DNA of 64,000 bases, taken from NCBI RefSeq assembly GCF_013122565.1, contig NZ_CP053258.1; one strand, 5' to 3'. Made by a program: the position numbers and the translations under genes. Below the pieces are notes generated by a model. The model searched no databases, was not told where the DNA came from, and saw nothing but the letters and a program-made list of their open reading frames with translations. Shown here piece by piece: positions 1 to 48,474 of this stretch (its first letter is position 1; each line of letters starts with the position of its first letter). This DNA comes from Escherichia coli. Lineage in GTDB: Bacteria > Pseudomonadota > Gammaproteobacteria > Enterobacterales > Enterobacteriaceae.

Positions 1-3000
1 CTTTGCCGTATCTTCTGCCACGGCGGTAATGGTCACCGTCACTGGCTTCATTTCGTACCCGCCATAGGTCAGGGCGTTAAATGTGAACGTATAGACACCA
101 GGCTTGCTGGTACTAAATGTACGCGTGATTTTTCCGCTCACGAAATGGTCATTTTTCGACGGCAGGAACTGATAATCCTTCTCCGTCACCCCTTCCGGCG
201 TCTGAATGTCGACCCACATATTCCCCCCAACGGGGTTGTTTGCCGACATCAGTGTCACCTCCAGCTTCGCAGTCGATTTCCCATCCGCCACCAGAGATTG
301 CACATCAGATGATGCGGTGAGTACCGCATTTTTATCATCCGCGACGAATTTAGATTCGGCAGTTTTCGTCGATACCTGACCGTTGTTCTGACTCACTTGC
401 GCCGTGAGTGTATATGTCGCCGCAACAGTAGTGGTAGCGGTGAAAATAGCCTGCCCTTGCTCATTCGTTGTCGCAGTGCCATTCGGTTCCAGGTTTAACG
501 AAGCCGGGCTGGCAGTCAGCGTCACTTCGCTATCTTTCAACAGGTTGTTATTGGCATCAGTCACCGTAACTTTATACGTTTGTTTGGCTTTGCCGTCCGC
601 CAGCGCATAGTTGCCAATCACCTCAATACCGGAGACGGTTGCGGTAGCCTTATCGGCTACAAACGTTATAGTCTGCGTATTCGAAGGCTGGCTATTCCCT
701 GCCGATGCCGTGATCTCATACGTTCCGGCAGTCACTGAAACCACCTGCAACTCTGCTTTCCCCTCATCGTTGGCTTTCACCCAGACATTATCGCCTGTAA
801 GCGGCTTGACACCCCGGGGCAGATTAAAGGTCACCAGGCTCCCTGGAACAGGGTTACCATTTTTATCCTCAACGGTCGCCGTCAGCGTAAAGGCATCTTT
901 GCCGTTTGCCACTTTTTGAACGGCGGTGTCTACCTGCAGGTTTGCCTGACCGGTGCTGGCATCCGCGTTGAATTTCACCGTGACCGTCTTCTGAGCACCA
1001 TTCACCGAAGCGGAAATATTGTGTTCTCCCGCAACCGTTGACATAAGCTCAATGTCCACTTTCCCTGCCGCATTGGTTGTTACTGTATTCCCCGTCTTGC
1101 TGGTCACACCCTGCGGTAAAGTCAGCGTAACTTCTTGCCCCTGCAACGGGTTACCATAGCTGTCCACGACGGTCAGGGTTATCTGGTTAGCAGACTGTCC
1201 ATTAGCCAGTTGGTTATTAACCTTCACTGTCATATCACGAATATCAGCCTGAGAAGCGTCCCCTGCAACGTTCAGCACCAGTGGCTGAGCAACAGCATTT
1301 TGGCCGTTCACTCGCGGCATCACAGACAACTGACCCGCAGCCGATCCCAGCGTTAAGGTCGCCACGTAGACCCCATTACCTTTCTCTGTCCAGTTTCCTG
1401 CTGAAGGACGCTCACTCCCCGTGCTGGCGGCACCGCTAAACACTGGTGCATCTGGCTTCAGCCCGGTGACCGGGTTCCCGTACGCATCCTTCACGGTGAA
1501 GGTGAGTTCCGTCGTCGTTTTGACGGTCGGAGCCTTATTGTCCGCAACAAGCGTAGAGTTCGCTGATGACATCTCTCCGGCGATGACCGTCAACTGCGCG
1601 GCTTCGGTGGCTGCTGGCTGGCCGTTGAAGAGCGGCATGACACGAAGCTCGCCCGTCTTTCCGCCTGTAGTCAACGTAGCAACATAGGAACCGTCACCTT
1701 TTTCGGTCCAACTGGAAACGGTCGCCCCTTCAGAGGCGGTCCCCGTCAAACTTGCCGACAACGCAAGACCACTGATAGCGTTGCCATGCGCATCTTTCGC
1801 CACCAGCATCACGGTTGTGCTTTCGCCGGCTTTTACGTGATCTTCTGCGACAGAGACTTTCGACTGGTTTGAAGATAACGCATCAGCCACCACGGTTACT
1901 TTTGCCGCATTTGCTGCCGCATCCTGTCCATTTAGCTTCGGCATAACTTCTAATTCACCCGCCGTAGAGCCGAGAGTAATCTGCGCAGTCCACGTCCCAT
2001 CACCATTATTTGTCCAGCCCGATGCCGTAGAACCTACAGCAGCGGCACCCGCTAATGACGGCGCTTCCGGCGTGAGGCTGGTCACAGGGTTGTCATAGGC
2101 ATCTTTTACCGTCCAGATTGCCGTAACTGTACCCCCAACCACCGGTTTATCAGGATTCAGGGTGATGGACGAATGTGCTGCATCAAGCGGCCCGGCAACA
2201 AACTTCAGCGTTTGTTGTAATGTGCCCAGCTGATACTGCTCGCTGAAGGCACGCACAACAACATTTCCTGCGCGAGTCGAAGAAACCGTAGCGCTGTAAA
2301 CCCCTGGTTTTATTTCCGAAATGGCACCAACGGTAACACCATTAATGTCTTGCGGAACAAGTCGCAGGCGGCTGGCTTCTCCCGTCACCGGATTACCCTC
2401 GGAGTCCACCGCAGTCAACGTCAACGTATAGGCTTGCTGACCATCAGCAACCACGTCACCTGACGGCTCGTTAGCGCTCAGGGTGGAGTTTGCCACATCC
2501 ATCATCGTGGCCCGCAGTTCTGCAGTGACGGTTTTGCTCATGCCATCAACGCTAACAGTAATCGTTGCCTCACCTGACTGCGTTCCGGTAGTAAAGACAG
2601 ACTGATACACCCCTGCTTCAGTTTCGGTGAACTCACCCAGTGTTGGCTTTGCCTGTGATTTAGTGGACTTCAGGGAACGAGTCACAATATTTCCAGCCGG
2701 TTTGAAGGCTAGTTCAGTCTTGATCTGATCTTTCATGCCCGTGACTGGCTGGCCCTCGGCGTCGCGCAGAGACAGCACCAGCGGTCTTTGCTCATTACCG
2801 TTAGCAAGCATTTGAATACGGCTCTGACCGTCAAGCGTTAACGCCGTGCGATCGGCACTCATACCTGCTCCGGTAATGACCACCTCTGTCTGCACGCGTT
2901 TTGAGGCATTGCCTTTGTTATCGTAGGCAACCGCAGAAATCGCATAATAATTGTCTTTGCCTGCCTGGTAAGCCGGGAGCGTCACTTGCCACTGATTACC

Positions 3001-4233
3001 CTGCCCCGTAATTTTTCCGCCTGCGGCCAGCAAAGACGGCGCTTCCCATTGAACATTTTTCAGACCGTGAGTTGCTTTACTCACCACAAGCCCCAGGGAA
3101 ACCGTCTGCCCGCCCTTGCCTTCAATACGTTCAGGCAGAGCAATACGGATCACTTCAGATTTGCGGTACTCAAGAACGATGTTGTTATTACGCTCAACCA
3201 GGTCATAGCGGCTGCCTGCCAGCATTCGACGCTCGCGAATGCTGTCTGTATCGAGTTGTTTTTGCAGAGGTTCGCCAATCCGATAATTAACTTCCAGGCC
3301 AAAGCGAGTGTCATTCTCACCACTCTTGCCCTGCTTATGCCCGGCACTCAGGGTCAGAAGAGGCACTGGCGTATAGGTCACCTCGGCAGAAATAGCATGC
3401 GGGTCTTTCTGGCGTTTATCTTTACCAAACAGCCCGACTTCATCGCCATAATACTGTTCATACATCAGGCTTGCGCCAAGCTGCGGCCAGGCGGGTAAAT
3501 AGCCCTCAGCACGAATATCCCAGCCATTCGCCGGGCGTTCCTGATAATCCTCAACATCCGGCGATTTTTTCCAGCCAGAAGCCCGGATATAACCATTGGC
3601 GCTCAGTTTCAAATAATCACGCCAGTATTCCGCACCAACACCAATGCGGGTATGACTACGGGATAAATCATGGTCGATAAAGGTGTTCACCCCCGCCATC
3701 CAGTCATTTCCTGAAAAATGACGCCAGCCAAAACCAATATTTGACTGAGTGCGATCATCTGTACGATGTATTGCCCCCTGAGTGAACAACATATTTGTCG
3801 GCGTATCATAAATAGGATAAAGCATTTCCAGAGAAGAATCCTTCAGCGAGAAATCTTTATCGACATTGAGTTTGACGCGCGCAGTACCGTATTTCCCGAG
3901 CCACTCCTGTATTTCCTGGTTAGCTTTAGCGGTGGCCATTCCGGTAATAAAGTTACGTGTCGCATCGCTATCTGGCTGACTGCTTAAAAAATTCCCAGCA
4001 TTTGCGGCAAACGACGCGACATTTTTCTCCACATTATTATCAGCAGCTACTGTGGTATTTTCCATGCTCAACCGTGGCTGAACCGCATGCTGCGCGCGTG
4101 CCGCCATTACTGGGGTAAAGGTGACCGCGAGTGGAAAAAGAACCTGAACAGAGATATTTGCCCACGCCACACAGCGGGCCAGAACTGAATAACGAAATCG
4201 TGGTTGTTTATGACCTGTTTTATAACGCGACAT
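1..4233 (-). CDS. eaeH: Intimin/invasin-like inverse-autotransporter adhesin with tandem bacterial Ig-like (Big) domains (EaeH/FdeC-like); start ATG at 4233-4231, 3' end runs off the window (>=1411 codons in window)
   Basis: Hand translation of minus strand from ATG at 4233 (AGGAAA RBS ~10 nt upstream) gives MSRYKTGHKQPRFRYSVLARCVAWANISVQVLFPLAVTF... then a beta-barrel-like region (GFGWRHFSGNDWMAGVNTFIDHD...) and many ~100-aa repeats of the type ...TLTVVDSYGNPLQGQEVTLTLPQG.... The ORF track omits it because it has no stop in the window. Frame continuity to position 1 was not checked codon by codon. Confidence 0.8.
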   Translation of the reverse strand, partial: MSRYKTGHKQPRFRYSVLARCVAWANISVQVLFPLAVTFTPVMAARAQHAVQPRLSMENTTVAADNNVEKNVASFAANAGNFLSSQPDSDATRNFITGMATAKANQEIQEWLGKYGTARVKLNVDKDFSLKDSSLEMLYPIYDTPTNMLFTQGAIHRTDDRTQSNIGFGWRHFSGNDWMAGVNTFIDHDLSRSHTRIGVGAEYWRDYLKLSANGYIRASGWKKSPDVEDYQERPANGWDIRAEGYLPAWPQLGASLMYEQYYGDEVGLFGKDKRQKDPHAISAEVTYTPVPLLTLSAGHKQGKSGENDTRFGLEVNYRIGEPLQKQLDTDSIRERRMLAGSRYDLVERNNNIVLEYRKSEVIRIALPERIEGKGGQTVSLGLVVSKATHGLKNVQWEAPSLLAAGGKITGQGNQWQVTLPAYQAGKDNYYAISAVAYDNKGNASKRVQTEVVITGAGMSADRTALTLDGQSRIQMLANGNEQRPLVLSLRDAEGQPVTGMKDQIKTELAFKPAGNIVTRSLKSTKSQAKPTLGEFTETEAGVYQSVFTTGTQSGEATITVSVDGMSKTVTAELRATMMDVANSTLSANEPSGDVVADGQQAYTLTLTAVDSEGNPVTGEASRLRLVPQDINGVTVGAISEIKPGVYSATVSSTRAGNVVVRAFSEQYQLGTLQQTLKFVAGPLDAAHSSITLNPDKPVVGGTVTAIWTVKDAYDNPVTSLTPEAPSLAGAAAVGSTASGWTNNGDGTWTAQITLGSTAGELEVMPKLNGQDAAANAAKVTVVADALSSNQSKVSVAEDHVKAGESTTVMLVAKDAHGNAISGLALSASLTGTASEGATVSSWTEKGDGSYVATLTTGGKTGELRVMPLFNGQPAATEAAQLTVIAGEMSSANSTLVADNKAPTVKTTTELTFTVKDAYGNPVTGLKPDAPVFSGAASTGSERPSAGNWTEKGNGVYVATLTLGSAAGQLSVMPRVNGQNAVAQPLVLNVAGDASQADIRDMTVKVNNQLANGQSANQITLTVVDSYGNPLQGQEVTLTLPQGVTSKTGNTVTTNAAGKVDIELMSTVAGEHNISASVNGAQKTVTVKFNADASTGQANLQVDTAVQKVANGKDAFTLTATVEDKNGNPVPGSLVTFNLPRGVKPLTGDNVWVKANDEGKAELQVVSVTAGTYEITASAGNSQPSNTQTITFVADKATATVSGIEVIGNYALADGKAKQTYKVTVTDANNNLLKDSEVTLTASPASLNLEPNGTATTNEQGQAIFTATTTVAATYTLTAQVSQNNGQVSTKTAESKFVADDKNAVLTASSDVQSLVADGKSTAKLEVTLMSANNPVGGNMWVDIQTPEGVTEKDYQFLPSKNDHFVSGKITRTFSTSKPGVYTFTFNALTYGGYEMKPVTVTITAVAEDTAK

Positions 4234-5128
4234 TGAGATAATTTCCTGATGAACGAATTAACGAACATATGCAGACACAAATAATGGCGTCTGCTTGTCA
4301 GAAAAACCGGGAATTTCCCGGTTTCCTTTTCCGCAGAAAAGGAAATACCTTTATGTAAGAAAGTGCACCGCCACCTAATATATTCAGTGTCTGTAGCCAC
4401 TCATCAGGTGGTTGGGCGCGGGATTATATTTTTATTTATGGGTGAAAATTTAGCTTTTTGTGCAAGTCATTAAAGTATGATTGTCACACTATATTCTCCG
4501 TTTAAATACAGTGAATATATTTTTATTTAAAGTGAATAATGATGTTCTGCTTTTAGTGACCACGATTAGAATTACGCCTAAAGAGGTATATGTTCATAAT
4601 AAGCCAATATTTTTTAAGGGTATTTATTTTCTTTCATCGGGCTATAAAATCCCGAAATATCGGATTTGCACAGCACCGATCAACAGTGCTTAAGCAGGCG
4701 GGTGCTGTTTACGACCAGGATAGTTAAGATAATATCCGGGAAAAGTTGGACATCAGCCCTGTAGAACCTGAATAAGTTCGCCTGACTTTACATAATCATG
4801 AACCGCGTTTTCGGAGCCACAGGCGGTACCAAAGTAAAAGGCTGGTGATGGGTACCTTTAGCCGAATCAGGTAGAAGTCATGAAATTCCCCCCTTAATCC
4901 ACAGCGTGTTCCTGAACTAACCATTCCGGATAGACTATTGGATCAAATTCAGGCATCGAAAGGAACAGGCTGTTTCCCGTTAAGGGATTAATTATCTATT
5001 TTCCTTAATAGATAACTGATGTAATACCTCTATTCAAATTTGTGATACATGTCAAAAAATTGGTTGACCAAACTCGTTATTTATATAAGGACACTTACGA
5101 AGTGCATTTTTAAAGCGAGGAAGTACCA

Positions 5129-5230
5129 ATGAAAGAGAATAAAGTACAGCAAATCAGTCATAAACTGATCAATATCGTTGTTTTTGTTGCAATAGTAGAA
5201 TACGCCTATTTATTTCTCCATTTCTATTAA
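5129..5230 (+). CDS. Small hydrophobic 33-aa protein (MKENKVQQISHKLINIVVFVAIVEYAYLFLHFY), predicted single-TM small membrane protein
   Basis: ATG preceded by GAGGAAG 8 nt upstream; polar N-terminus followed by one hydrophobic helix; inside an AT-rich intergenic region. Resembles the class of small membrane proteins annotated in the E. coli ykg region (possibly ykgR-like, from memory only). Confidence 0.4.
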   Translation: MKENKVQQISHKLINIVVFVAIVEYAYLFLHFY

Positions 5231-5290
5231 TAACGGCAATAAACTGTTCACTTTAGTGATATTTAAAATATGCATCCTTTTTCTGCTTTT

Positions 5291-5320
5291 CAAGCTGTTC
5301 AAGCTGTTCAAGCTGTTCAG
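5291..5320. repeat. Tandem repeat, 3.3 copies of the 9-bp unit CAAGCTGTT
   Basis: caagctgtt caagctgtt caagctgtt cag read directly in the AT-rich spacer. Confidence 0.9.
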
Positions 5321-5657
5321 CGGCGTAAGAGAAAGTATTGAGTATGAATTCGACGATTTAACCATATCTGTTTGATTGGTAATCATCCGTGATTAATGCT
5401 GGTCTATTGATTACGCCAGCATTAACCGCTTAGGGATGTATTCTTCCTGTTCATATACAGCCCTCGAAAAAGAGAGCAAATAAAACTGTGTCCAATATTA
5501 CTCTACCACTCCAGACCGAAGTATCGGTAGAATTAGCAGAACGGCTGGTACAGTAGATTGGGATAGCGTCATTTGTCAGGCATTCCATTGCCATAATAAT
5601 AATTATGAATCAATAGACGTGCTTCTTGATCATGTCTTAAAAATTATACCACGAGCC

Positions 5658-5888
5658 TTATGAAGCATCATTTTTACTGACTGGTGTTAACTTTGCTATC
5701 ATATAAACTCTGTTCTTAAAAAACGCGCCCAGAATTTTATATGATTTTCCTTGTTTTTCTGCCTGTAAAGAAATTTCTTTTTCAGTGCTGTCAATGGTTG
5801 AACCGACGGCAGTAATCGTTTTGGCGACGCTACTGAAAGATAATAAAGACAGTGTCATCACAACAATTAAAGAACAGATAGTATTCAT
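5658..5888 (-). CDS. Small secreted protein, DUF1471/YhcN-like (signal peptide + ~55-aa mature domain)
   Basis: ORF track 5658..5930; internal Met gives MNTICSLIVVMTLSLLSFSSVA (signal-peptide-like) then ...AEKQGKSYKILGAFFKNRVYMIAKL, matching the pattern of YahO/YjfY-type small periplasmic stress proteins. Start chosen at the internal Met; the printed sequence and ORF track appear to disagree by 1 nt here. Confidence 0.4.
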   Translation of the reverse strand: MNTICSLIVVMTLSLLSFSSVAKTITAVGSTIDSTEKEISLQAEKQGKSYKILGAFFKNRVYMIAKLTPVSKNDAS

Positions 5889-6103
5889 GCTAATTCTCCT
5901 GACAATTGAGAGGATGAGTTTTATATACATAGATATTAAACATGAGTCATATTTACTCCAAGAGAAAATACCCCTTCTGTAATTAAACCTTCATCTCCTT
6001 CGGAATGAGTAATGCATAATATAATGCATCTTGCTATGCAAAACAGTGGATATAAATTTTCCTCCCGACCTATTTAATAAAACGTGAATGTAAAAGTTAT
6101 TCT

Positions 6104-6841
6104 TCAGTTTGCAGATGCAGTGGGTCTGATGGTAATTTCGGTTGTATCAACGCTTTCGGGCGATTCAATAATATGCCTTACAGCACGGGCAATATCCGCA
6201 GGTTGAAGTGCAACAGAACGGTAGACATCCATTGCCTTCATGGTTTCCACATGGGTAATGGTTGAAGCCAGTTCACTTTCGACAACGCCAGGATTTACGC
6301 ATGTCACACGGATTTTCGAGCTTTCCTGCCGTAAGCCATCAGAAATAGCCCTTACTGCAAATTTTGATGCGCAATAGACTGCGCCTGTGGGCACAACAGA
6401 AAGGGCACCAATAGAACCAAGATTGATTATCTGACCGGAACCCTGTGCTTCCATCACCGGAAGTACAGCGCCAATTCCCCAAAGTACACCTTTGATATTC
6501 ACGTCTATAGTGAGCTCCCATTCATCCTGTTTTCCTGCTGCAAGCGGTGAAAGCGGCATAACGCCCGCATTATTGATAAGAACATCAACTCGCCCCCAGC
6601 TATCCAGCGCTGCTTGCACGAAATCGGCCATGGACTGTCGGTTTGTGACATCCAACTCCCGCGCTTTAGCAATTCCTCCTGCGCGGCAGATTTCGGTTGC
6701 AATGGCTTCGATACGCTCAACTCTGCGTGCGCCCAGTAAAACCTTTGCACCTGTCGTTCCCAGCGCTCTGGCAATACCTTCCCCAATACCACTTGATGCG
6801 CCGGTAATTAATATGACCTTATCCATTACGTTCTCCTTCAA
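6104..6841 (-). CDS. Short-chain dehydrogenase/reductase (classical SDR)
   Basis: ITGASSGIG Rossmann motif near N-terminus, NNAG, YCASK catalytic motif; 245 aa (alternative start at MDKVILITG). Confidence 0.85.
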   Translation of the reverse strand: MKENVMDKVILITGASSGIGEGIARALGTTGAKVLLGARRVERIEAIATEICRAGGIAKARELDVTNRQSMADFVQAALDSWGRVDVLINNAGVMPLSPLAAGKQDEWELTIDVNIKGVLWGIGAVLPVMEAQGSGQIINLGSIGALSVVPTGAVYCASKFAVRAISDGLRQESSKIRVTCVNPGVVESELASTITHVETMKAMDVYRSVALQPADIARAVRHIIESPESVDTTEITIRPTASAN

Positions 6842-6924
6842 ATGTGTTCGGAGAGAGAATAGAACTTTATGATTGGTTCCAGTATCCTGCTTTCAATGTA
6901 CTCAGTGGTTAGCGGCATTAAACA

Positions 6925-7824
6925 ATGAAAATCGATCTTAATCTTTTACCCATTTTTATCGCGGTAGCAGAAGAGAGTAATTTTAGTAAAGCCGCCGCAC
7001 GACTGGGCGTTACCCGTTCAGCGGTCAGTCAGGGAATAAGACGCCTTGAAGATGCATTCGGGACAATGCTTGTAATGCGGACCACGCGCTCAGTTAATTT
7101 GACGGAAGCGGGAGAACGGCTGCATAAATCGTTGTCATTACCTTTATCCGGTATTGAGGCAACGTTCGAAGAGATGGTTTCTGACCATGTGCCACGCGGA
7201 CTTCTCAGAATCGCGGTGACGTCGATAGCAGAAGAATTTCTTTCAGGTCCGCTAATCGCTTCGTTTGCAGCTGCCAATCCAGCCGTTACGCTTGATATTG
7301 TTGTAACGGATGAGGAATTCGATATCGTGGCCGCAGGTTACGATGCTGGCGTAAGGCTCGGAGAGGTCATTGAAAAAGACATGATTGCTGTGCCCATTAC
7401 CGGCAGGCAGCGTGAAATGGTCGTTGCCTCTCCCTCCTATCTCGCAGCCAACAGCACTCCTGTTCATCCGCGTGAACTTGTGAATCATAAGTGTATCGGC
7501 TGGCGTCAGTCCCCGGAGGTTGCGCCTTATCGCTGGCCATTTGAAGAAAACGGGAGAGCTTTCGACCTTGCGATTGAACCGCAGATTACGACTAATGATC
7601 TGCGTCTGATGTTGCGGCTGGCTCTTGCCGGTGGAGGAATAACAATTGCCACTCAGGAAACTTTCAGGCCGTATATTGAAAGCGGTAAGCTTGTATCGCT
7701 GCTTGATGACTTTCTTCCACAATTTCCGGGCTTCTATCTGTATTTCCCACAGCGTCGCAATATTGCACCAAAGCTCCGCGCCCTGATTGACCACGTCAAA
7801 GAATGGCGGCAGCAATTGACTTAA
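6925..7824 (+). CDS. LysR-family transcriptional regulator, divergent from the SDR gene
   Basis: N-terminal HTH (LNLLPIFIAVAEESNFSKAAARLGVTRSAVSQGIRRLE), 299 aa, LysR substrate-binding-like C-terminus; divergent 83-bp intergenic region with the SDR gene. Confidence 0.9.
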   Translation: MKIDLNLLPIFIAVAEESNFSKAAARLGVTRSAVSQGIRRLEDAFGTMLVMRTTRSVNLTEAGERLHKSLSLPLSGIEATFEEMVSDHVPRGLLRIAVTSIAEEFLSGPLIASFAAANPAVTLDIVVTDEEFDIVAAGYDAGVRLGEVIEKDMIAVPITGRQREMVVASPSYLAANSTPVHPRELVNHKCIGWRQSPEVAPYRWPFEENGRAFDLAIEPQITTNDLRLMLRLALAGGGITIATQETFRPYIESGKLVSLLDDFLPQFPGFYLYFPQRRNIAPKLRALIDHVKEWRQQLT

Positions 7825-8389
7825 ATGTCTGCACCTGCACGGCCTGATGTCAGAACAATATTTTGATGAATTGCCTACACCAGCTAGCCGCAGCACATTC
7901 TTGCATACGACATGTCTGCGGTTTACTTTTCACGCTCAAACCTTATGGTAAAGCACAATAATGATCCCCAGGGCTATATAAATGTTTTGTAATTAGCTCT
8001 TAAGACGAACTTTTCAGACTAACTTCTTTATTCATCCATAATGAAGACTGTATTAGGAAGTTCTCTAAAAACATGAATAACCACTGTCTTACAATGAATT
8101 TAGTTTACAGAACATTCTTATTGAGAAAAAACAACACTGTACACACCCAATAATATAGAAATGTAAATTTAAGTTTATTAATCTTTTGAATTATAATCAT
8201 AACTTTCTGTTAACCATTAGAATATCAATAGATTATAATCACTGAACACACATTTTTATAATTGCTATTCCCACACTCAAAATGCGCATCCCAATATCTT
8301 ATTTGACACTTTGTTGTTTGCTACTAGAGTTAATTGGGTGCTGACAAGGCACATGTTATTTACAAATTGGAAATCAGAGGAGAAATGAT

Positions 8390-8572
8390 ATGACCGAACA
8401 TCGTGGCGGTGCAGGTAATTTCGCTGAAGATCGACAAAAAGCTTCTGACGCAGGTCGTAAAGGTGGCCAACAAAGTGGTGGTAATTTTAAAAACGATCCA
8501 CAAAGAGCATCAGAAGCAGGGAAAAAAGGTGGTCAGAATAGCCATGGCGGCGGTCGTAAATCTGACTCTTAA
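8390..8572 (+). CDS. yciG: YciG/YmdF-like KGG-repeat general stress protein
   Basis: 60 aa, repeated GG..K...A.EAG.KGGQ motifs (RKGGQQSGGNF, KKGGQNSHGGGRK); preceded by 560 bp of AT-rich non-coding DNA; RBS GGAGAA. Confidence 0.8.
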   Translation: MTEHRGGAGNFAEDRQKASDAGRKGGQQSGGNFKNDPQRASEAGKKGGQNSHGGGRKSDS

Positions 8573-8645
8573 TTTTTCATCTCCCTAAATTCGTGAATAA
8601 CTGCAGCTAACTGCGAGCCTACGGGCTCGCAGGGACAACTCTGGA

Positions 8646-9152
8646 GTGATTATGCAAATTAAATCTGTTGAAGATATCTTCATCCATTTATTATCTGACA
8701 CATATAGTGCTGAGAAACAACTAACCAAGGCACTATCTAAACTTACTCGCTCCGCATATAGTGATAAATTAACCGCTGCTTTTCAGTCACATCTTGATGA
8801 GACACATGGTCAAATTGAACGCATCGACCAGGTTGTTGATTCTGAAGATGGTATTAAACTAAAAAGAATTAAGTGCGCCGCAATGGAAGGCCTTATTGAA
8901 GAGGCGAATGAGGTAATTGAAAGCACTGACAAAAATGAAATACGTGATGCTGCGTTGATTGCAGCAGCACAAAAAGTAGAACACTATGAAATTGCCAGTT
9001 ATGGCACCCTGGTAACACTTGCTGAGCAATTAGGATTTAAAAAAGCGGCTCAACTCCTGAAAGAAACTCTGGAAGAGGAAAAAGCTACTGATGTCAAATT
9101 AACAGACCTGGCATTTAATAATGTTAATAAAAAAGCTCAGGATAACTCCTGA
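8646..9152 (+). CDS. yciF: YciF-like DUF892 ferritin-like stress protein
   Basis: 168 aa; paralogous to the next gene; operon order yciG-yciF-yciE as in the known yciGFE(-katN) stress operon. Confidence 0.8.
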   Translation: MIMQIKSVEDIFIHLLSDTYSAEKQLTKALSKLTRSAYSDKLTAAFQSHLDETHGQIERIDQVVDSEDGIKLKRIKCAAMEGLIEEANEVIESTDKNEIRDAALIAAAQKVEHYEIASYGTLVTLAEQLGFKKAAQLLKETLEEEKATDVKLTDLAFNNVNKKAQDNS

Positions 9153-9186
9153 ACTATAGACTTCACTTTTTTAGGAGAAATATATT

Positions 9187-9693
9187 ATGAATAGCATTGA
9201 ACATTATCATGACTGGCTTCGTGACGCACACGCAATGGAGAAACAAGCGGAATCAATGTTGGAGTCTATGGCCAGCAGGATAGAAAACTATCCTGAGTTA
9301 CGTTCCAGAATTGAGCAGCACATTAGCGAAACAAAGAACCAGCTTTCACAGCTTGAAAGCATACTTGATCGTAATAATATTTCTCGCTCTGTCATTAAAG
9401 ACTCTATGAGTAAAATGGCCGCGTTTGGGCAATCTATTGGTGGAATTTTTCCATCTGATGAAATTGTCAAAGGTTCGATCAGTGGCTATGTTTTTGAACA
9501 ATTTGAAATTGCGTGCTACACATCTCTTCTCGCAGCAGCCAAAAATGCGGGTGATACAGCTTCAGTACCAATTATTGAAGCAATTCTTAATGAAGAAAAA
9601 CAAATGGCTGAATGGCTTCTTAACCATATTCCAGACACCACTGAGCAGTTTATGGTCAGATCTGAAATTGATGGCGCTGAAGCAAAAAAATAA
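9187..9693 (+). CDS. yciE: YciE-like DUF892 ferritin-like stress protein
   Basis: 168 aa, MNSIEHYHDWLRDAHAMEKQAESMLESMASRIENYPEL...; tight spacing to flanking genes. Confidence 0.8.
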   Translation: MNSIEHYHDWLRDAHAMEKQAESMLESMASRIENYPELRSRIEQHISETKNQLSQLESILDRNNISRSVIKDSMSKMAAFGQSIGGIFPSDEIVKGSISGYVFEQFEIACYTSLLAAAKNAGDTASVPIIEAILNEEKQMAEWLLNHIPDTTEQFMVRSEIDGAEAKK

Positions 9694-9711
9694 TTCTTTA
9701 GAGGAGGAATT

Positions 9712-10602
9712 ATGTTTAGACACGTGAAAAAACTTCAATATACAGTACGTGTAAGTGAACCAAACCCAGGCTTAGCTAATCTACTTTTAGAACAATTCGG
9801 CGGCCCACAGGGTGAGCTTGCAGCTGCATGCCGATACTTCACTCAAGGTTTAAGTGATGAAGATGCAGGTCGAAGGGATATGCTGATGGACATAGCAACA
9901 GAAGAACTAAGCCATCTCGAAATTATTGGTTCTCTTGTTGGTATGCTCAACAAAGGTGCAAAAGGAGCACTCGCTGAAGGAACTGAGAATGAAGCGGAGC
10001 TTTACCGTTCCTTAACTCAAAATGGCAATGACAGCCATATAACTTCTCTTCTCTACGGAGGAGGCCCAGCATTAACTAATTCAGCTGGAGTACCCTGGAC
10101 TGCAGCTTATGTTGATACTATTGGCGAAGTCACAGCCGATCTTCGTTCAAATATTGCAGCTGAAGCTCGTGCAAAGATCATTTACGAGCGTCTCATTAAT
10201 GTTACTGATGATCCTGGAGTGAAAGACACTCTGGCATTTTTAATGACCAGGGAAGCAGCACATATGCTTTCTTTTGAAAAAGCATTACATTCAATTCGTA
10301 ACACTTTTCCACCAGGAAAATTACCACCGATTGAGAAGTACAAAAACGTATATTACAACATGTCAGAAGGTGAAGATGTCAGAGGTAGTTGGAACAGTGA
10401 TGAAAACTTTGATTATGTTTCCGATCCAGTTCCAGCTGTTGACGGTGGGGATGGGAAGGCCTCGATAATTCTTTCGACCAAGCAAGAAGCTATGATAAAA
10501 GCTATGGCAACAAGGTTGAAATCCCATGAAGATATCAATCCTGTCACTGGCGCTGAGCTTGCTGAAGGAGAGCCACAAACAAAGGTAAATAGTAAAAACT
10601 AA
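9712..10602 (+). CDS. Manganese (non-haem) catalase, KatN-like
   Basis: 296 aa, ferritin-like di-metal fold with EELSHLEIIG and REAAH motifs typical of Mn catalases; fourth gene of a yciGFE-katN-type arrangement (known from Salmonella). Confidence 0.8.
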   Translation: MFRHVKKLQYTVRVSEPNPGLANLLLEQFGGPQGELAAACRYFTQGLSDEDAGRRDMLMDIATEELSHLEIIGSLVGMLNKGAKGALAEGTENEAELYRSLTQNGNDSHITSLLYGGGPALTNSAGVPWTAAYVDTIGEVTADLRSNIAAEARAKIIYERLINVTDDPGVKDTLAFLMTREAAHMLSFEKALHSIRNTFPPGKLPPIEKYKNVYYNMSEGEDVRGSWNSDENFDYVSDPVPAVDGGDGKASIILSTKQEAMIKAMATRLKSHEDINPVTGAELAEGEPQTKVNSKN

Positions 10603-10692
10603 TTATCTTCTGGTATTTAGCTATCTCTCATAAATTTTAATGGCCGCAGAGATATCCTAAGCTCTAGCCACTGAAAATACATTTATATTTCG

Positions 10693-10727
10693 AAGCCCGC
10701 GATATTATAAGCGGGCTTTTATTTTAA
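10693..10727 (+). terminator. Rho-independent terminator after the Mn-catalase gene
   Basis: AAGCCCGC-gatattataa-GCGGGCTT followed by TTATTTT. Confidence 0.6.
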
Positions 10728-11050
10728 CCTTCTGGTATTACAGGCCACTCAATATCCGGTGCTACTGATGGCTCAACACGATTCAACAACATCCGATATG
10801 TCTTCCATGCGGCCATTCAACATTTCGCAGAAATGCAACTAAGAGACATTACTGAATCAAAAATTTATTCAGCAATGCAGAAAATGACGAACCGGCGTCA
10901 TGAGGAAAACTGGAAACTCAGGGCAGAAGCATGCAGAAAAAAGGGAAACCTGTTCCAGAATACACGCCAAACCCAGCGTCTGTTGCAACGAAGGCTACGC
11001 ATCTTTCATTTATAAAAGCCCTGCTAAGAGCCGCAGAGCGTGAATAGAAA

Positions 11051-11718
11051 ATGCTGGATAAGGCACCAATTATTAAAGTGCCTCAACCGAAGAATAAACG
11101 GATCCGCTGGCTGGAACCTCATGAAGCACAAAGGCTGATTGATGAATGTCCGGATCCATTAAAGTCTGTTGTTGAATTTGCACTGGCAACAGGTTTAAGA
11201 CGCTCGAACATCATCAACCTTGAATGGCAACAAATAGACATGCAGCGCCGGGTGGCCTGGATAAACCCGGAAGAGAGTAAATCAAACTGCGCGATTTGCG
11301 TTGCGCTGAATGATACTGCATGTCGAGTATTGAAAAAACAAATCGGGAATCACACCGTTGGGTATTTGTGTAAAAGGAAAGCTGTACAAAACCAGACGGA
11401 ACGAAAGCGCCAACAGTCAGGAAGATGCAGTATGACGCAAACACAGCCAGGAAAACGGCGCTGAGACGAGCTGGTATTGATGATTTCAGATTTCACGACT
11501 TGAGACACACCTGGGCAAGTTGGCTGGTTCAAGCCGGAGTCCCGTTGTCAGTGTTACAGGAAATGGGAGGCTGGGAGTCTATCGAAATGGTTCGACAATA
11601 TGCTCACCTCGCACCTAATCACCTTACCGAACACGCACGGCAAATAGACTCGATCCTAAACCCATCGGTCCCAAATTTGTCCCAGTCAAAAAATAAGGAA
11701 GGTACTAACGATGTGTAA
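11051..11718 (+). pseudogene. Tyrosine-recombinase (phage integrase) remnant: catalytic C-terminal half only, with a frameshift near 11425-11464
   Basis: Two overlapping frames (11051..11464 and 11425..11718) together give an integrase catalytic domain ([19 protein letters not shown]...; [39 protein letters not shown]); N-terminal ~200 aa absent; ends 15 bp from the tRNA 3' end in convergent orientation. Confidence 0.7.
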
Positions 11719-11732
11719 CTTATTGATTTAAA

Positions 11733-11808
11733 TGGTGCCGATAAGAGGAGTCGAACCTCCGACCTTCGCATTACGAATGCGCTGCTCTACCAACTGAGCT
11801 ATATCGGC
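11733..11808 (-). tRNA. thrW: tRNA-Thr (anticodon CGU)
   Basis: Minus-strand sequence GCCGATATAGCTCAGTTGGTAGAGCAGCGCATTCGTAATGCGAAGGTCGGAGGTTCGACTCCTCTTATCGGCACCA folds as a canonical cloverleaf with CGT anticodon and CCA end. Confidence 0.95.
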
Positions 11809-11922
11809 CCTGAAAGGACATGTTCACGAACGTGAATCACGGTGGACAAGGTTAAAACTAACCGGGCGATGCGTCAATGGCCTTGTGAATCAAATGGCTA
11901 CTTTTGCATCACCCGGTTTTAT

Positions 11923-13176
11923 TTACGCACGAATGGTGTAATCACCAATGCCGATCCACTTGTAAGTGGTCAGTGCTTCCAGCCCCATTGGGCCACGCGC
12001 GTGGAGTTTTTGTGTGCTTACCGCCACTTCCGCACCCAGACCAAACTGGCCGCCGTCGGTAAAACGCGTAGAGGCGTTAACGTAAACAGCGGACGAATCC
12101 ACTTCGTTAACAAAACGCTGGGCGTTGCGCATATCGCGGGTCAGGATCGCATCGGAGTGTTGTGTGCCGTGTTCACGAATATGGGCGATGGCATCGTCAA
12201 GATCGCTGACGATTTTGACGTTCAAATCTAATGACAGAAACTCATCGTCATACTCTTCGGCTTTAACCGCCACCACCTTCGCGGGGCCTGTCTGCAACTG
12301 CGCCAGCGCAGCAGCATCTGCGTGTAACGTCACGCCGCTTTCCGCCATTTGCTTGCTTAATGCGGGCAGGAAGCTATCGGCGATGTTTTTATTTACCAGC
12401 AACGTTTCTACCGTATTACATGTGCTCGGACGCTGAGTTTTCGCGTTGACGATCACTTTTAATGCTTCAGCGATCTCTGCACTTTCATCAACGTAAATAT
12501 GGCATACGCCTATACCACCAGTGATCACCGGGATTGTCGACTGTTCGCGGCACAGTTTATGCAAACCAGCGCCACCACGCGGGATCAGCATGTCGATGTA
12601 TTTATCCATACGCAGCATTTCACTGACCAGCGCACGGTCAGGATTATCAATCGCCTGCACGGCACCCGCCGGTAAGCCACAGGATTTCAGGGCGTCCTGA
12701 ATCACCGCCACCGTTGCCGCGTTAGTGCGACAGGTTTCTTTGCCACCACGCAGGATCACCGCATTACCGGTTTTCAGGCACAGCGAAGCGACATCAACCG
12801 TCACGTTCGGGCGCGCTTCATAAATCACGCCAATAACCCCCAGCGGTACGCGACGACGCTCAAGACGCAGGCCGCTGTCCAGTACGCCGCCATCGATTAC
12901 CTGCCCCACCGGATCGGCGAGATTGCACACCTGGCGCACATCGTCGGCAATGCCTTTCAGCCGTGCGGGCGTCAGTGCCAGACGGTCAAGCATCGCTTCG
13001 CTAAGGCCATTGGCACGCGCGTCAGCAACATCCTGGGCGTTAGCGTTGAGGATGATTTCGCTTTGTGCTTCCAGTTCATCGGCGATTTTTTCCAGCACGC
13101 GATTTTTTTCGCGGCTGGAGAGTTGCGCTAATTTATACGAGGCTTGCTTCGCGGCAATGCCCATTTGTTCCAGCAT
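11923..13176 (-). CDS. proA: Gamma-glutamyl phosphate reductase
   Basis: 417 aa full-length match to ProA by recollection ([38 protein letters not shown]...); 11-bp spacing from proB. Confidence 0.95.
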
Positions 13177-13187
13177 CAGCCTGCTCC

Positions 13188-14291
13188 TTAACGGGTAATC
13201 ATGTCATCACGGTGAACGGCAACCGGGCCGTATTCATATCCCAGTATTGCATCAATTTCTTGCGAGTGGTGTCCGGCAATACGGCGTAATGCATCGCTGT
13301 TGTAACGACTGACGCCGTGAGCGATATCGCGACCTTCGAGGTTGCAAATGCGGATGACTTCACCACGCGAGAAATTGCCAGTCACGCTTTTAATGCCTTT
13401 CGGCAACAGGGAGCTGCCGCGTTCAAGAATGGCGGCAGTTGCCCCTTCATCTACCGTGATTTCACCCGCCGGCGGCGCACCGAAAATCCAGCGTTTACGG
13501 TTTTCAAGCGGAGTCGCCTGGGCATGGAACAACGTACCGACGGAAATGCCTTCCATCACATCACCAATAACGCCCGGCTTGCTGCCCGCGGCAATAATGG
13601 TGTCGATACCCGCACGGCAAGCCACGTCTGCGGCCTGCAATTTGGTACTCATGCCGCCAGTTCCGAGGCCTGAAACGCTGTCACCGGCAATCGCGCGCAG
13701 TGCGTCATCAATGCCGTAAACATCTTTAATCAGTTCTGCCTGCGGATTGCTGCGCGGGTCAGCGGTATACAAACCTTTTTGATCGGTCAGCAGCAACAGT
13801 TTATCGGCACCCGCCAGAATCGCCGCCAGCGCAGAAAGGTTATCGTTATCGCCGACCTTAATCTCTGCCGTAGCGACAGCATCGTTCTCATTGATTACCG
13901 GAACGATATTGTTATCGAGCAACGCTCGCAGGGTGTCGCGGGCGTTCAGGAAGCGTTCACGGTCTTCCATATCAGCACGGGTCAGCAGCATCTGCCCGAC
14001 GTGAATGCCATAAATCGAAAACAGCTGTTCCCACAGTTGAATCAGTCGACTCTGCCCTACCGCCGCCAGCAGTTGTTTCGAGGCGATAGTCGCTGGCAGT
14101 TCCGGGTAACCCAGGTGCTCACGTCCGGCGGCGATCGCGCCCGACGTCACAATAACAATCCGATGCCCGGCGGCATGTAACTGCGCGCACTGGCGAACAA
14201 GTTCAACGATATGGGCACGGTTCAGGCGGCGCGATCCGCCTGTTAGCACACTGGTGCCGAGTTTTACCACCAGCGTCTGGCTGTCACTCAT
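13188..14291 (-). CDS. proB: Glutamate 5-kinase
   Basis: 367 aa starting [19 protein letters not shown]; the ORF-track start (14378) is an upstream in-frame extension. Confidence 0.95.
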
Positions 14292-14479
14292 GATTCTCTG
14301 CCATTCAATTTTAGGAAAAATGATATCAAACGAACGTTTTAGCAGGACTGTCGTCGGTTGCCAACCATCTGCGAGCAAAGCATGGCGTTTTGTTGCGCGG
14401 GATCAGCAAGCGTAGCGGCAGTTGTTTACGCTTTTATTACAGATTTAATAAATTACCACATTTTCAGAATATTATTAAT

Positions 14480-14498
14480 CTGTAATATATCTTTAACA
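14480..14498 (+). promoter_or_regulatory. Pho box (PhoB binding site) upstream of phoE
   Basis: CTGTAATATATCTTTAACA matches the CTGTCATA-type direct-repeat Pho box about 80 bp upstream of the phoE start. Confidence 0.6.
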
Positions 14499-14578
14499 AT
14501 CTCAGGTTAAAAACTTTCCTGTTTTCAACGGGACTCTCCCGCTGAATATTCGCGCGTTAATTAAAATCAGGAATGAAA

Positions 14579-15634
14579 ATGAAAAAGAGCACTCTGGCAT
14601 TAGTGGTGATGGGCATTGTGGCATCTGCATCCATACAGGCCGCAGAAATATATAACAAAGATGGTAATAAACTGGATGTCTATGGCAAAGTTAAAGCCAT
14701 GCATTATATGAGTGATAATGACAGTAAAGATGGCGACCAGAGTTATATCCGTTTTGGTTTTAAAGGTGAAACACAAATTAACGATCAACTGACTGGTTAT
14801 GGTAGGTGGGAAGCAGAGTTTGCCGGTAATAAAGCGGAGAGTGATACTGCACAGCAAAAAACACGTCTCGCTTTTGCCGGATTGAAATATAAAGATTTGG
14901 GTTCTTTCGATTATGGTCGTAACCTGGGCGCGTTGTATGACGTGGAAGCCTGGACCGATATGTTCCCGGAATTTGGTGGCGACTCCTCCGCACAGACCGA
15001 CAACTTTATGACCAAACGCGCCAGCGGTCTGGCGACGTATCGGAACACCGACTTCTTCGGCGTTATCGATGGCCTGAACTTAACCCTGCAATATCAAGGG
15101 AAAAACGAAAACCGCGACGTTAAAAAGCAAAACGGCGATGGCTTCGGCACGTCATTGACATATGACTTTGGCGGCAGCGATTTCGCCATTAGTGGGGCCT
15201 ATACCAACTCAGATCGCACCAACGAGCAGAACCTGCAAAGCCGTGGCACAGGCAAGCGTGCAGAAGCATGGGCAACAGGTCTGAAATACGATGCCAATAA
15301 TATTTATCTGGCAACTTTCTATTCTGAAACACGCAAAATGACGCCAATAACTGGCGGCTTTGCCAATAAGACACAGAACTTTGAAGCGGTCGCTCAATAC
15401 CAGTTTGACTTTGGTCTGCGTCCATCGCTGGGTTATGTCTTATCGAAAGGGAAAGATATTGAAGGTATCGGTGATGAAGATCTGGTCAATTATATCGATG
15501 TTGGTGCTACGTATTATTTCAACAAAAATATGTCAGCCTTTGTTGATTATAAAATCAACCAACTGGATAGCGATAACAAATTGAATATTAATAATGATGA
15601 TATTGTCGCGGTTGGCATGACCTATCAGTTTTAA
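14579..15634 (+). CDS. phoE: Phosphate-starvation-inducible outer membrane porin PhoE
   Basis: 351 aa with signal peptide [21 protein letters not shown] and porin C-terminal ...VGMTYQF. Confidence 0.95.
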
Positions 15635-15642
15635 TGGATATT

Positions 15643-15663
15643 GCCGGATGTGATGCATCCGGC
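15643..15663. terminator. Hairpin between convergent phoE and crl (likely bidirectional terminator)
   Basis: GCCGGATG-tgatg-CATCCGGC inverted repeat immediately after the phoE stop. Confidence 0.45.
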
Positions 15664-15672
15664 ACATTTCAC

Positions 15673-16131
<459 letters not shown>

Positions 16132-17376
16132 TTAACACAAACGTTTTTCGATCCAGTCGGTGATTTCCTGAAGACCTTTGTCAAAATTCCGATACACCGG
16201 GTTAAATGGGATCTCTAATAATTTACCGTCAGCAGATGATGAGGTGATTAAGCGTGAGTCCTCTTCCGGGCTGAACGGATCGTTCTTCCAGTAGCCTGAT
16301 AACATTGGCGTTGGGCAGCGACGTCCCAGCAATCCTTGCACTTTTAATGAATAGCGATTCAGCTCCACGCGCAACGCTTCGTCGGAAGCATCATGCATCC
16401 CCAAACGACTCGCCAGAACGTCAAGATACATTTCCGGCACCTGTTGCTGGCACTTAAAATCACTCAACAGGGTATGAACTACCGGACCAAGACAGGCAAC
16501 CGCTTTCAGACGCGGCGATTCAAGGTATGCCAGACGCACTGCAACGTTAGCGCCGAAACGGAAACCAAAGGCCGCGACGCGAGTGTGATCCACCCACGGT
16601 ACGTTAGGCAGCGCCTTTAAGACGTGCTGATGCAACAGGCTGGAGTCCTGGGTGAGCTTCCATTTTGAAGAAAAGCCCACCGACGGCATATCAATAGTCA
16701 GCATCGCAATGCCGCGCGGCGCAAAATAACGTTCATACAGGCTGTAATAGTCCGTCTGCATCGCATCCAGACCACCACACATTAATACTGTCGGGAACGG
16801 GCCATCGCCTTTCGGCATATGCAAAAAGCCGGTGATGGGCGCACCGCCGGGTACGGTAAACTCCATCTGCCGCATCGTGCCCGGCAGACGCTGAGCGGCC
16901 TCTTCATAGGCGCGGTTTGACAAAGCCTGCGCTTGCTCAGCCAGGTCATCTCCTTTCAGATGAGGATAGGCGGCAATGTTGTACAACGTAGCCGCATGAA
17001 GCCAGTGTCGACCACTGAGTTGCGGATCTTCTTCCGCACAGGCTTTTTGTTGCCACACCATCGCCTGGGTGGCCCACTCATAAATCCAGTTGCCGCCGCG
17101 GTAGCCAATCACCGTATCGTATAAATCATCGTCGGTACGTTCGGCATCGCTCATCACAATACGGGCCTGGACGTCGAGGATTTCACGTGGGTCAATGCCG
17201 CGCCAGATCCACATCAGACGGTTAATCATGCGATACCAGTGAGGGATGGTTTTACCATCAAGGGCCGACTGCACAGGCGGTTGTGCGCCGTGATTAAAGC
17301 GGCGGACTAGCGTCGAGGTTTCAGGATGTTTAAAGCGGGGTTTGAACAGGGTTTCGCTCAGGTTTGCCTGTGTCAT
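16132..17376 (-). CDS. frsA: Esterase FrsA (alpha/beta hydrolase)
   Basis: 414 aa, [30 protein letters not shown].... Confidence 0.95.
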
Positions 17377-17467
17377 GGATGCAGCCTCCAGAATACTTAC
17401 TGGAAACTATTGTAACCTGCCTGAAGTTAAAAAGAACAACGCCCGGCAGTGCCAGGCGTTGAAAAGA

Positions 17468-17926
17468 TTAGCGACCGGAGATTGGCGGGACGAATACGAC
17501 GCCCATATCCCACGGCTGTTCGATCCAGGTATCTTGTGGGATATCAACAACATAATCATCAACCAGCGGACGACCAGCCGGTTTTGCGAAGATGGTGACA
17601 AAGTGCGCTTTTGGATACATTTCGCGGATTGCCACTGCAGTACCACCGGTATCCACCAGGTCATCAATTACGATGAAGCCTTCGCCATCGCCTTCTGCGC
17701 GTTTCAGCACTTTAAGCTCGCGCTGGTTGTCGTGATCGTAGCTGGAAATACAAACGGTATCGACATGACGAATACCCAGTTCACGCGCCAGTAACGCACC
17801 CGGTACCAGACCGCCACGGCTTACGGCAATAATGCCTTTCCATTGTTCAGAAGGCATCAGTCGGCTTGCGAGTTTACGTGCATGGATCTGCAACATGTCC
17901 CAGGTGACGATGTATTTTTCGCTCAT
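17468..17926 (-). CDS. gpt: Xanthine-guanine phosphoribosyltransferase
   Basis: 152 aa, [39 protein letters not shown].... Confidence 0.95.
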
Positions 17927-18186
17927 GTGAAGTGTCCCAGCCTGTTTATCTACGGCTTAAAAAGTGTTCGAGGGGAAAATAGGTTGCGCGAGATTATAGA
18001 GATCTGGCGCACTAAAAACCAGTATTTCACATGAGTCCGCGTCTTTTTACGCACTGCCTCTCCCTGACGCGGGATAAAGTGGTATTCTCAAACATATCTC
18101 GCAAGCCTGTCTTGTGTTGACAACATTTTCTGCTAACCCTGTGACCTGCAATACTGTTTTGCGGGTGATCGACAAGGAGACTTAAC

Positions 18187-19644: not shown

Positions 19645-19700
19645 TTATTTGATTTGCTGCCGGATGGCGTTCAATCACCTTCCGGCAGTTTCATCCTTCA

Positions 19701-23273: not shown

Positions 23274-23289
23274 TGCTCACCTCTCAATA

Positions 23290-23305
23290 CTGGTAAAGTA
23301 TACAG
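23290..23305. promoter_or_regulatory. LexA (SOS) box in the dinB promoter
   Basis: CTGGTAAAGTATACAG (CTG-N10-CAG) about 17 bp upstream of the dinB start. Confidence 0.75.

Positions 23306-43517: not shown

Positions 43518-48474
<4,957 letters not shown>

Follow-up and report, generated by a model that had tools for sequence, protein, structure and literature searches.

The inverse autotransporter FdeC has a passenger that, in the strains studied so far, attaches to epithelial cells and to collagens of types I, III, V, and VI and favors aggregation and biofilm formation. Surface display of the protein and its binding to collagen and epithelial cells were shown for FdeC of strains IHE3034 and CFT073 (PMC3324786), and FdeC has been described as having approximately 10 Big domains and a TAM-assisted assembly (PMC4943183). 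Orthologs of FdeC share more than 91% amino acid identity over their full length, according to the range given by Nesta et al. (PMC3324786). The K-12 version of the gene, eaeH, is a pseudogene (PMC3324786), although published surveys agree that an intact fdeC is usual in E. coli (PMC3324786; PMC6714894).

Here we compare with these systems a gene at one end of the window, by which we mean the whole stretch of 64,000 nt of Escherichia coli DNA that was analyzed (contig NZ_CP053258.1 of assembly GCF_013122565.1). We conclude with high confidence that window positions 1–4233 on the minus strand represent the chromosomal fdeC (eaeH) of a somewhat divergent Escherichia lineage, apparently intact and missing only its last 21 nt, which fall outside the window, and that its product is an adhesin of type Ve (inverse autotransporter).

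Reading frame, domain order, and identity of the gene

Translation of positions 4233 to 1 on the minus strand gave a single open frame of 1411 codons with zero stops, starting from an ATG at 4233–4231, in agreement with the sequence-only reading, which had described an adhesin frame of more than 1400 residues running uninterrupted from its ATG to the window edge. At 52.5% GC, a run of 1411 codons free of stops would arise by chance with a probability of ~1e-27. What ends the frame is the window edge rather than a stop codon, and solely for this reason it is missing from the program-made list of open reading frames. Its start codon agrees with the start annotated for FdeC in RefSeq (MSR/HYKTGHKQ...). 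When aligned, FdeC proteins of 1417 aa run six residues further (GEE[T/A]MK) and then reach a TAA, which would end the gene 21 nt past window position 1. The coding sequence at 1–4233 (minus strand) is taken as codons 1–1411 of an expected 1417, and since the final six codons with the stop fall outside the window, the completeness of fdeC rests on its homologs.

The protein begins with a predicted long Sec signal peptide (codons 1–47; 4093–4233, minus strand), suggested by a Kyte-Doolittle profile and residue counts: there are six K/R residues in aa 1–20, a hydrophobic core at approximately aa 13–44, and no acidic residue in aa 1–47, after which VMA/ARA marks the putative cleavage site. The inverse-autotransporter β-barrel, or translocator, follows at codons 76–350 (3184–4008, minus strand), where Pfam PF11924 (IAT_beta) matched aa 76–350 over profile positions 3–279 of 279 (E = 2.7e-109), and it also matches the invasin/intimin β-domains 4E1T (E = 7e-83) and 4E1S (E = 9e-71) in the PDB. 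The remainder, codons 358–1411 (1–3162, minus strand), is a surface passenger of tandem Ig-like domains in which Pfam recognized nine Invasin_D3 and four Big_1 stretches. Within it, codons 595–1008 (1210–2451, minus strand) are the equivalent of the crystallized FdeC fragment, PDB 4E9L (E = 2.3e-247), from which they differ at 19 of 414 aligned residues (~95% identity). An N-terminal IAT barrel ahead of an IgSF passenger is the arrangement that places a protein in the type Ve family. Intimin (EaeA) and the Yersinia invasin likewise have type Ve secretion, a homologous β-barrel, and Ig-like passenger domains; however, Pfam found no LysM, C-type-lectin, or Intimin_C match in the window protein, which differs from both in having no detected LysM or C-terminal lectin-like receptor-binding domain and in having a much longer passenger.

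If export proceeds as is known for the family, the signal peptide would deliver FdeC to the periplasm, the N-terminal β-barrel (aa 76–350) would insert into the outer membrane aided by BAM and TAM, and the C-terminal passenger of about ten Ig-like domains would thread out through the barrel to project from the cell surface. This route, like the adhesion and the regulation considered below, is drawn from the literature on other strains.

The identity of the gene is apparent from full-length comparisons. Alignments to the RefSeq proteins named "inverse autotransporter adhesin FdeC" were gap-free along 1417-aa references, at 98% identity for strain A30 and 95% for strain wlxctx60, and the best protein cluster (P0001; 3112 members) is itself named FdeC, its representative being 97.7% identical with no gaps; all three values clear the range of Nesta et al. 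The earlier description of an EaeH/FdeC-like Big-domain adhesin was therefore well founded. FdeC of the ExPEC strain IHE3034 (ECOK1_0290; source of 4E9L) and EaeH of the ETEC strain H10407 are the same gene with the same domain order (1417 vs. 1416 aa) and the same neighborhood on the visible side, the window copy being a distinct allele with five private substitutions. The exact window protein extended by either homolog tail (GEETMK or GEEAMK) had no match in a collection of 15 billion proteins, and the 40-mer of window positions 1–40 had none among 100,044 species-representative genomes. Among 5426 complete E. coli genomes, none exceeded 97.3–97.8% identity in the core flanking genes.

Several inverse autotransporter families occur in E. 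coli (PMC6714894), and there are mobile FdeC-like paralogs at ~81% identity that are flanked by PerC, MarR, and ParA genes (loci L006 and L014), so that the gene might have been intimin, IatC, SinH-like, YchO, or a plasmid- or island-borne paralog of FdeC instead of the fdeC ortholog. NCBIfam has no FdeC-specific model, and we scanned it only to exclude other families: the window protein scored far under the cut-offs for IatC (641/2400 bits), intimin_all (380/1400), SinH (304/999), and YchO/YchP (287/508), and was also far below that for Ilp. Its 98% identity to chromosomal FdeC contrasts with the 81% to the mobile paralogs; the synteny upstream, with ykgR, agrees with the chromosomal locus; and the full leader described below is present, including stem S1 and hairpins A and B, which the paralogs lack. 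Scores, identity, synteny, and leader together effectively refute any of these other identities.

The chromosomal locus of fdeC lies between the ykgR side and a ykgA-like AraC regulator, of which the window shows the upstream side. There, ykgR occupies 5129–5230, an order common to K-12 and strain wlxctx60. The ExPEC-type locus of strain A30 differs in having a reductase/hydrolase/LysR set upstream of fdeC; the window lacks that set and has ykgR upstream, as in K-12. The GC content upstream of fdeC is 32–40%, vs. 50–59% across most of the gene.

Constraint on the gene and the contrast with K-12

The overall dN/dS was 0.137, with 0.056 for the barrel and 0.196 for the passenger, and no indels were found against the 1417-aa proteins. 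When compared with 79 full-length FdeC proteins, only 5 of the 1411 residues were private to the window copy, four of them in the passenger and the fifth (N81) near the start of the barrel segment; none occupies a barrel-core position. By these measures the copy looks constrained and working, and purifying selection at dN/dS ~0.14 indicates that the protein would be made and matter somewhere in the life cycle. The suggestion that this strain may express a functional FdeC-type adhesin is, on the ratio and the lack of indels, a reasonable one.

A gene that is open for 1411 codons may still be a pseudogene, if it is disrupted just past the window edge or carries a disabling substitution. The window does stop short of the expected stop codon, and disrupted copies exist elsewhere, namely that of K-12, a frameshifted copy (L015), and a truncated variant in 22 isolates (PMC11143625). 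In addition, at least 80% of fdeC was present in 4573 of 5426 complete E. coli genomes, leaving ~16% without that much of the gene. Yet the unseen remainder is only 21 nt, the dN/dS ratio is that of ongoing purifying selection, there are zero indels, and the five private residues spare the barrel core, all of which makes decay of this copy highly improbable.

An intact fdeC is thus what the window most plausibly holds. K-12 eaeH (b0297) is an 888-nt pseudogene with an orthologous 5′ end, an identical leader, and ~97% identity over its first 292 codons. Alignment showed that homology stops at approximately nt 875, within the β-barrel, where IS3A begins, and the window copy is longer by 1119 codons. 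The statement in the sequence-only reading that K-12 eaeH is an IS-disrupted fragment was accurate. Since the neighboring ykgA is also truncated and homology ends at the IS3A junction, an IS-associated deletion in K-12 is indicated. However, most E. coli carry fdeC intact and K-12 is the exception, so the contrast carries little news: the gene encodes an already characterized, broadly conserved adhesin that is expected to be intact outside laboratory K-12 lineages.

A candidate structured leader upstream of fdeC

Approximately 200 nt upstream of fdeC appear, from alignment and folding predictions, to make up a very conserved and structured leader, in which one hairpin resembles a terminator and one helix might occlude the ribosome-binding site. 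Conservation is higher in the leader than at the synonymous sites of fdeC, and two of the leader helices show compensatory changes. All of its elements lie on the minus strand. Nearest the gene, the Shine-Dalgarno sequence AGGA (4244–4247), read from the sequence 10 nt upstream of the ATG, is invariant in 12 chromosomal-locus sequences and is AAGA in two paralogs. Hairpin C (GCAGACGC...GUGUCUGC; 4271–4294) is the RNA helix best supported by pairing in the alignment, with 95.5% of cells paired and with changes from G-C to A-U in six sequences and from C-G to U-A in two. The adjacent UUUUCUGA (4298–4305) is predicted by the RNAalifold consensus to pair with UCAGGAAA (4249–4242), thereby covering the Shine-Dalgarno sequence, and it also provides the U-tail of hairpin B. 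This putative masking helix is 96.4% paired and nearly invariant, and no covariation was found within it.

Farther upstream are the tandem hairpins A (4345–4322) and B (4322–4306), together spanning 4306–4345, of which B followed by U5 resembles a terminator. The segment 4365–4280 folds at −27.7 kcal/mol (z = −4.4), and 0 of 200 shuffles were as stable. Hairpins A and B are conserved from E. coli to E. marmotae, and one-sided changes in hairpins A–C yield G·U rather than A·C on the sense strand (7 vs. 1 pair types). We rejected the idea that hairpins A and B terminate transcription of a neighboring gene, because the genes upstream run divergently, whether the locus is of the A30 type or has ykgR upstream (wlxctx60, K-12, and the window). 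In the long stem S1 (4365–4419), E. coli-type and E. marmotae-type alleles differ by compensatory changes (C-G to U-A, U-A to C-G, and A-U to G-C). In the alignments an invariant TATAAT (4423–4428) may be a −10 element but lacks a convincing −35, and a second candidate promoter, TTCACT-16-TATAGT, lies at 4515–4488. The promoter scan returned two sites, fewer than the 3.3 that chance would give, and supports no promoter call.

The leader (4234–4428, minus strand), comprising S1 and hairpins A–C, could represent an undescribed cis-regulatory RNA in which the terminator-like U-run pairs alternatively with the Shine-Dalgarno region, a proposal that we regard as rather doubtful. Such a leader could be a temperature- or signal-sensing switch behind the reported restriction of FdeC to 39°C or above, or a distinct sRNA of ~115 nt could be made from its 5′ part. 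The likeness to FourU-type and other Shine-Dalgarno-masking RNA thermometers and to leader-terminator attenuators lies in the predicted pairing of a U-rich segment with the Shine-Dalgarno region and in FdeC reportedly turning on between 37 and 39–42°C (PMC11143625). The differences are that the masking helix of fdeC has no covariation; that its burial of the Shine-Dalgarno sequence, whose predicted probability of being unpaired is 0.04 at 37°C, is within the range of shuffled sequences (7.5% were equally low, which is not significant); that the predicted structure does not melt sharply from 37 to 42°C (opening rises from 0.04 to 0.05); and that there is no Rfam match. The Rfam search of 4100–6300 returned only a meaningless snoRNA match (E = 0.99), and we found neither an Rfam family nor, among the papers searched, a description of the fdeC leader. 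A scan of species representatives with leader 20-mers gave six loci, of which three were real matches, all in Escherichia. Two loci from MAGs (L007 and L011) were rejected as chance matches with no surrounding similarity, and a third (L012) had too little upstream sequence and was left out of the alignment. As the leader was not traced outside Escherichia, the power to detect covariation is low.

Expression of FdeC and what an intact gene would mean

FdeC is induced by host contact, and Nesta et al. did not detect the native protein in any in vitro condition without host cells (PMC3324786). Another report, which cites Easton 2014, places expression only at 39–42°C and under the control of H-NS; in EHEC, FdeC is seen only from 39°C upward, and in APEC at 42°C (PMC11143625). 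The same report found that deletion of fdeC raised adhesion in an avian strain (PMC11143625), so "adhesin" is incomplete as a label for the phenotype. Because FdeC is silent under ordinary laboratory conditions in the published work, an intact gene is not necessarily an expressed one. Judging from these other strains, expression is probably conditional rather than constitutive, with silencing by H-NS and activation by temperatures of at least 39°C, by alkaline pH, or by contact with host cells. Such tight control would fit both the AT richness upstream of the gene and the strong conservation of the structured 5′ leader.

It is possible, although we consider it the less probable outcome, that the gene is intact but effectively cryptic, with H-NS and its own leader keeping it silent, so that under most conditions the strain would make no functional adhesin. 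The published lack of native FdeC in vitro and its restriction to high temperature point in this direction, as do the AT-rich upstream region and a leader that has a terminator-like hairpin and is predicted to bury both the Shine-Dalgarno sequence and the AUG (probabilities of being unpaired, 0.04–0.05). However, purifying selection implies that FdeC is made and useful somewhere in the life cycle, and conditional expression still counts as expression.

We therefore favor an intact fdeC that would be expressed conditionally. A conserved structured leader, if real, would be of modest importance, as a possible addition to H-NS in the switching of FdeC by temperature and host contact. FdeC is a vaccine candidate, and an intact copy as such matters little; the practical value of the finding is correct annotation of the gene as an fdeC ortholog that is partial at the window edge and not a pseudogene.

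Identity and reading frame of the adhesin gene

The fdeC (eaeH) gene occupies window positions 4233 to 1 on the minus strand, with an AGGA Shine-Dalgarno (SD) sequence 10 nt 5' of its ATG. Translation gave 1411 codons with zero stops, as the sequence-only reading had proposed for an uninterrupted frame of more than 1400 residues from the ATG to the window edge (1-4233); the chance probability of such a stop-free run at 52.5% GC is ~1e-27. The frame is missing from the ORF listing because it runs past the window end. Beyond the equivalent of that edge, fdeC of E. coli strain A30 continues GGC GAG GAG ACG ATG AAA TAA and the FdeC of strain wlxctx60 ends in GEEAMK, and therefore the window gene is short of just six codons and a stop. 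We infer from these homologous tails that fdeC is complete at its 3' end, and a different outcome is very unlikely. Species-representative genomes contained no match to a 40-mer taken at the window edge, and the exact protein with either tail was not in a large protein collection.

The proposal that the product is an EaeH/FdeC-type Big-domain inverse autotransporter is upheld by agreement among its Pfam architecture, its closest solved structure and its alignment with FdeC. Pfam identified an inverse-autotransporter beta-barrel (aa 76-350, E 2.7e-109) followed C-terminally by nine Invasin_D3 and four Big_1 stretches, and reported no LysM or lectin-like domain. The top structure match, 4E9L, is a fragment of ExPEC FdeC (aa 595-1008, E 2.3e-247, 19 of 414 residues differing), with the barrel domains of invasin and intimin ranking next. 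Alignment with the 1417-aa FdeC proteins of A30 (98% identity) and wlxctx60 (95%) was gap-free. A search of 5426 complete E. coli genomes matched the DNA to a gene annotated "fdeC: inverse autotransporter adhesin FdeC", and an FdeC cluster of 3112 members (98% identity) was the top cluster in a search of 5.8 billion proteins. NCBIfam has no FdeC-specific model, and models for other relatives were used instead; IatC, Ilp, intimin, SinH and YchO were excluded as identities by scores far under the cut-offs. What the window carries is a gene known before, fdeC, intact as it usually is.

Prevalence, K-12 and integrity

A match to fdeC was found in 5085 of the 5426 genomes, with at least 80% of the query present in 4573 (84%). 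Published surveys give similar figures: the gene was present in ~99% of ExPEC and in 83-100% of the remaining groups of natural isolates (89.5% of EHEC, 82.6% of commensal/fecal strains), and K-12 strains carried pseudogenes (PMC3324786); it was complete in 67% of 126 complete genomes and in 83% of the ECOR collection (PMC6714894). Intact fdeC is thus the default state and K-12 the exception. The description of K-12 eaeH as an IS-disrupted fragment proved accurate: in MG1655 eaeH (b0297) is an 888-nt pseudogene immediately adjoining IS3A, and ykgA, which comes next, is a pseudogene too. Nucleotide homology with the window gene, which is open through 1411 codons, ends at ~nt 875 (aa 292), within the barrel domain, and so the K-12 product would be unable to form a translocator. 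The intact reading is confirmed, yet it brings little news, as fdeC is already characterised and an intact copy is usual.

Against A30, the window gene has dN 0.0107, dS 0.078 and dN/dS 0.137 (0.056 for the N-terminus and barrel, 0.196 for the passenger); against wlxctx60, dN/dS is 0.141. In a comparison with 79 full-length FdeC proteins, the window protein had just five private residues (N81, I630, M809, D997 and E1407) and, as the sole extra gap, one single-residue length polymorphism. The N-terminus, basic and then hydrophobic, has the pattern of a predicted long signal peptide. None of these features suggests decay, and the low dN/dS and few private residues support the earlier interpretation that the strain may express a functional FdeC-type adhesin.

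Length variants of 1630 and 1148 aa occur at the same chromosomal locus in other genomes (L013:1501-6393 and L016:1501-4947), which suggests that Ig-like domains are gained and lost; a frameshifted copy at this locus (L015:977-5859) is split into ORFs of 178 and 1452 aa. FdeC-like paralogues of ~81% identity (L006:3001-7245, L014:1501-5751) are flanked by PerC, MarR and ParA genes, and so apparently lie on a plasmid or island.

Lineage and neighboring features

The core genes proA, proB, phoE, crl, frsA, gpt, pepD and dinB (window 4234-24000) have at most 97.3-97.8% identity to any of the 5426 genomes, placing the lineage outside well-sampled phylogroups; by sequence identity it is possibly a divergent, cryptic-clade-like Escherichia. 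The thrW-to-fdeC interval (4234-11808; tRNA-Thr at 11733-11808, adjoining proA) is compact, at ~7.5 kb. It contains ykgR, a small DUF1471-like ORF, an SDR oxidoreductase, a LysR regulator, an integrase remnant and a stress cluster (con-10-like, YciE/YciF, Mn catalase), an arrangement common to only 2 of the 5426 genomes. The ecp/mat pilus operon and ykgMO, just upstream of eaeH in K-12, are absent from it.

An FlhA-like ORF (24041-25813) has no counterpart to the first ~113 positions of the FlhA model and scores under its cut-off. This lfhA remnant adjoins lafU and dinB, and the three resemble what deletion of a lateral-flagella (Flag-2) cluster would leave behind, as in the wlxctx60 annotation. 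A type VI secretion cluster (36699-63524) encodes TssK (62181-63524), TssL (60868-62184), TssM (56026-59892), VgrG (48498-50711) and a full Rhs protein of 1379 aa (43871-48010), after which come three shorter Rhs C-terminal "orphan" ORFs (41474-43312, 39360-40820 and 36699-38315).

The fdeC leader and expression of the adhesin

The ~270 nt 5' of the fdeC ATG are almost invariant among four diverse alleles, tighter than fdeC synonymous sites (dS 0.08-0.17), and most of this leader is also kept in further Escherichia lineages, E. marmotae and E. whittamii among them. On the minus strand, an invariant TATAAT (4428-4423) precedes a predicted long stem, S1 (4419-4365), tandem hairpins A (4345-4322) and B (4322-4306), the latter terminator-like with its trailing U5, and a third hairpin, C (4294-4271). 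The folding energy of the 86-nt core is -27.7 kcal/mol (z = -4.4). Across 14 sequences, 90.5% of cells in the RNAalifold structure were paired versus 40-47% with partners slid, and pair changes on both sides numbered 11 versus 5-8 in the slid controls. Compensation was clearest in hairpin C (six sequences have A-U in place of G-C, and two have U-A in place of C-G); the island- or plasmid-borne paralogues (L006 and L014) retain only this hairpin and the SD-proximal part of the leader. In 12 chromosomal-locus sequences the non-Watson-Crick pair types within the predicted helices were 16 G·U versus four A·C, an excess favoring RNA read in the fdeC sense direction, albeit a count biased by prediction of the structure on that strand. 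A 97-codon GTG ORF (4107-4400, minus strand), with a conserved in-frame ATG at 4268, crosses the hairpins and extends in another frame over the start of fdeC. This ORF is probably spurious; the leader accounts better for the conservation.

In the predicted fold, the U-run UUUUCUGA (4305-4298) forms a helix with UCAGGAAA (4249-4242) that would bury the SD (P unpaired 0.04 at 37 °C). This helix is invariant and so offers zero covariation, the SD was buried equally well in 7.5% of shuffled leaders, and no sharp opening was predicted from 37 to 42 °C. The leader has no Rfam match, and the literature searched held neither an earlier description of a structured fdeC leader (4234-4428) nor a link of fdeC/eaeH to an RNA thermometer or sRNA. 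From its modeled structure, the leader is a plausible candidate for a regulatory RNA element.

Native FdeC was not seen in vitro unless host cells were contacted (PMC3324786). According to PMC11143625, which cites Easton 2014, EHEC FdeC is H-NS-regulated and detected only at or above 39 °C, and an fdeC reporter with its native promoter and leader in an avian strain was active at 42 °C but not at 37 °C. GC content is 32-40% in the 1.9 kb upstream of the window gene versus 50-59% in most of the gene, and such an AT-rich region is typical of H-NS-bound DNA. By analogy, H-NS, temperature and host contact may control expression in the source strain.

The largest inverse-autotransporter subgroup has FdeC as its prototype; TAM aids assembly of the barrel, and some ten Big domains are displayed on the surface (PMC4943183). 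The recombinant protein attaches to epithelial cells and to collagens I, III, V and VI, and FdeC promotes aggregation and has a part in colonization of the bladder and kidney (PMC3324786). If the window protein behaves as its characterised homologs do, the source strain would likewise assemble the barrel with the aid of TAM and display about ten Big domains, and its FdeC may bind cells and collagen, promote aggregation and have a role in colonization.
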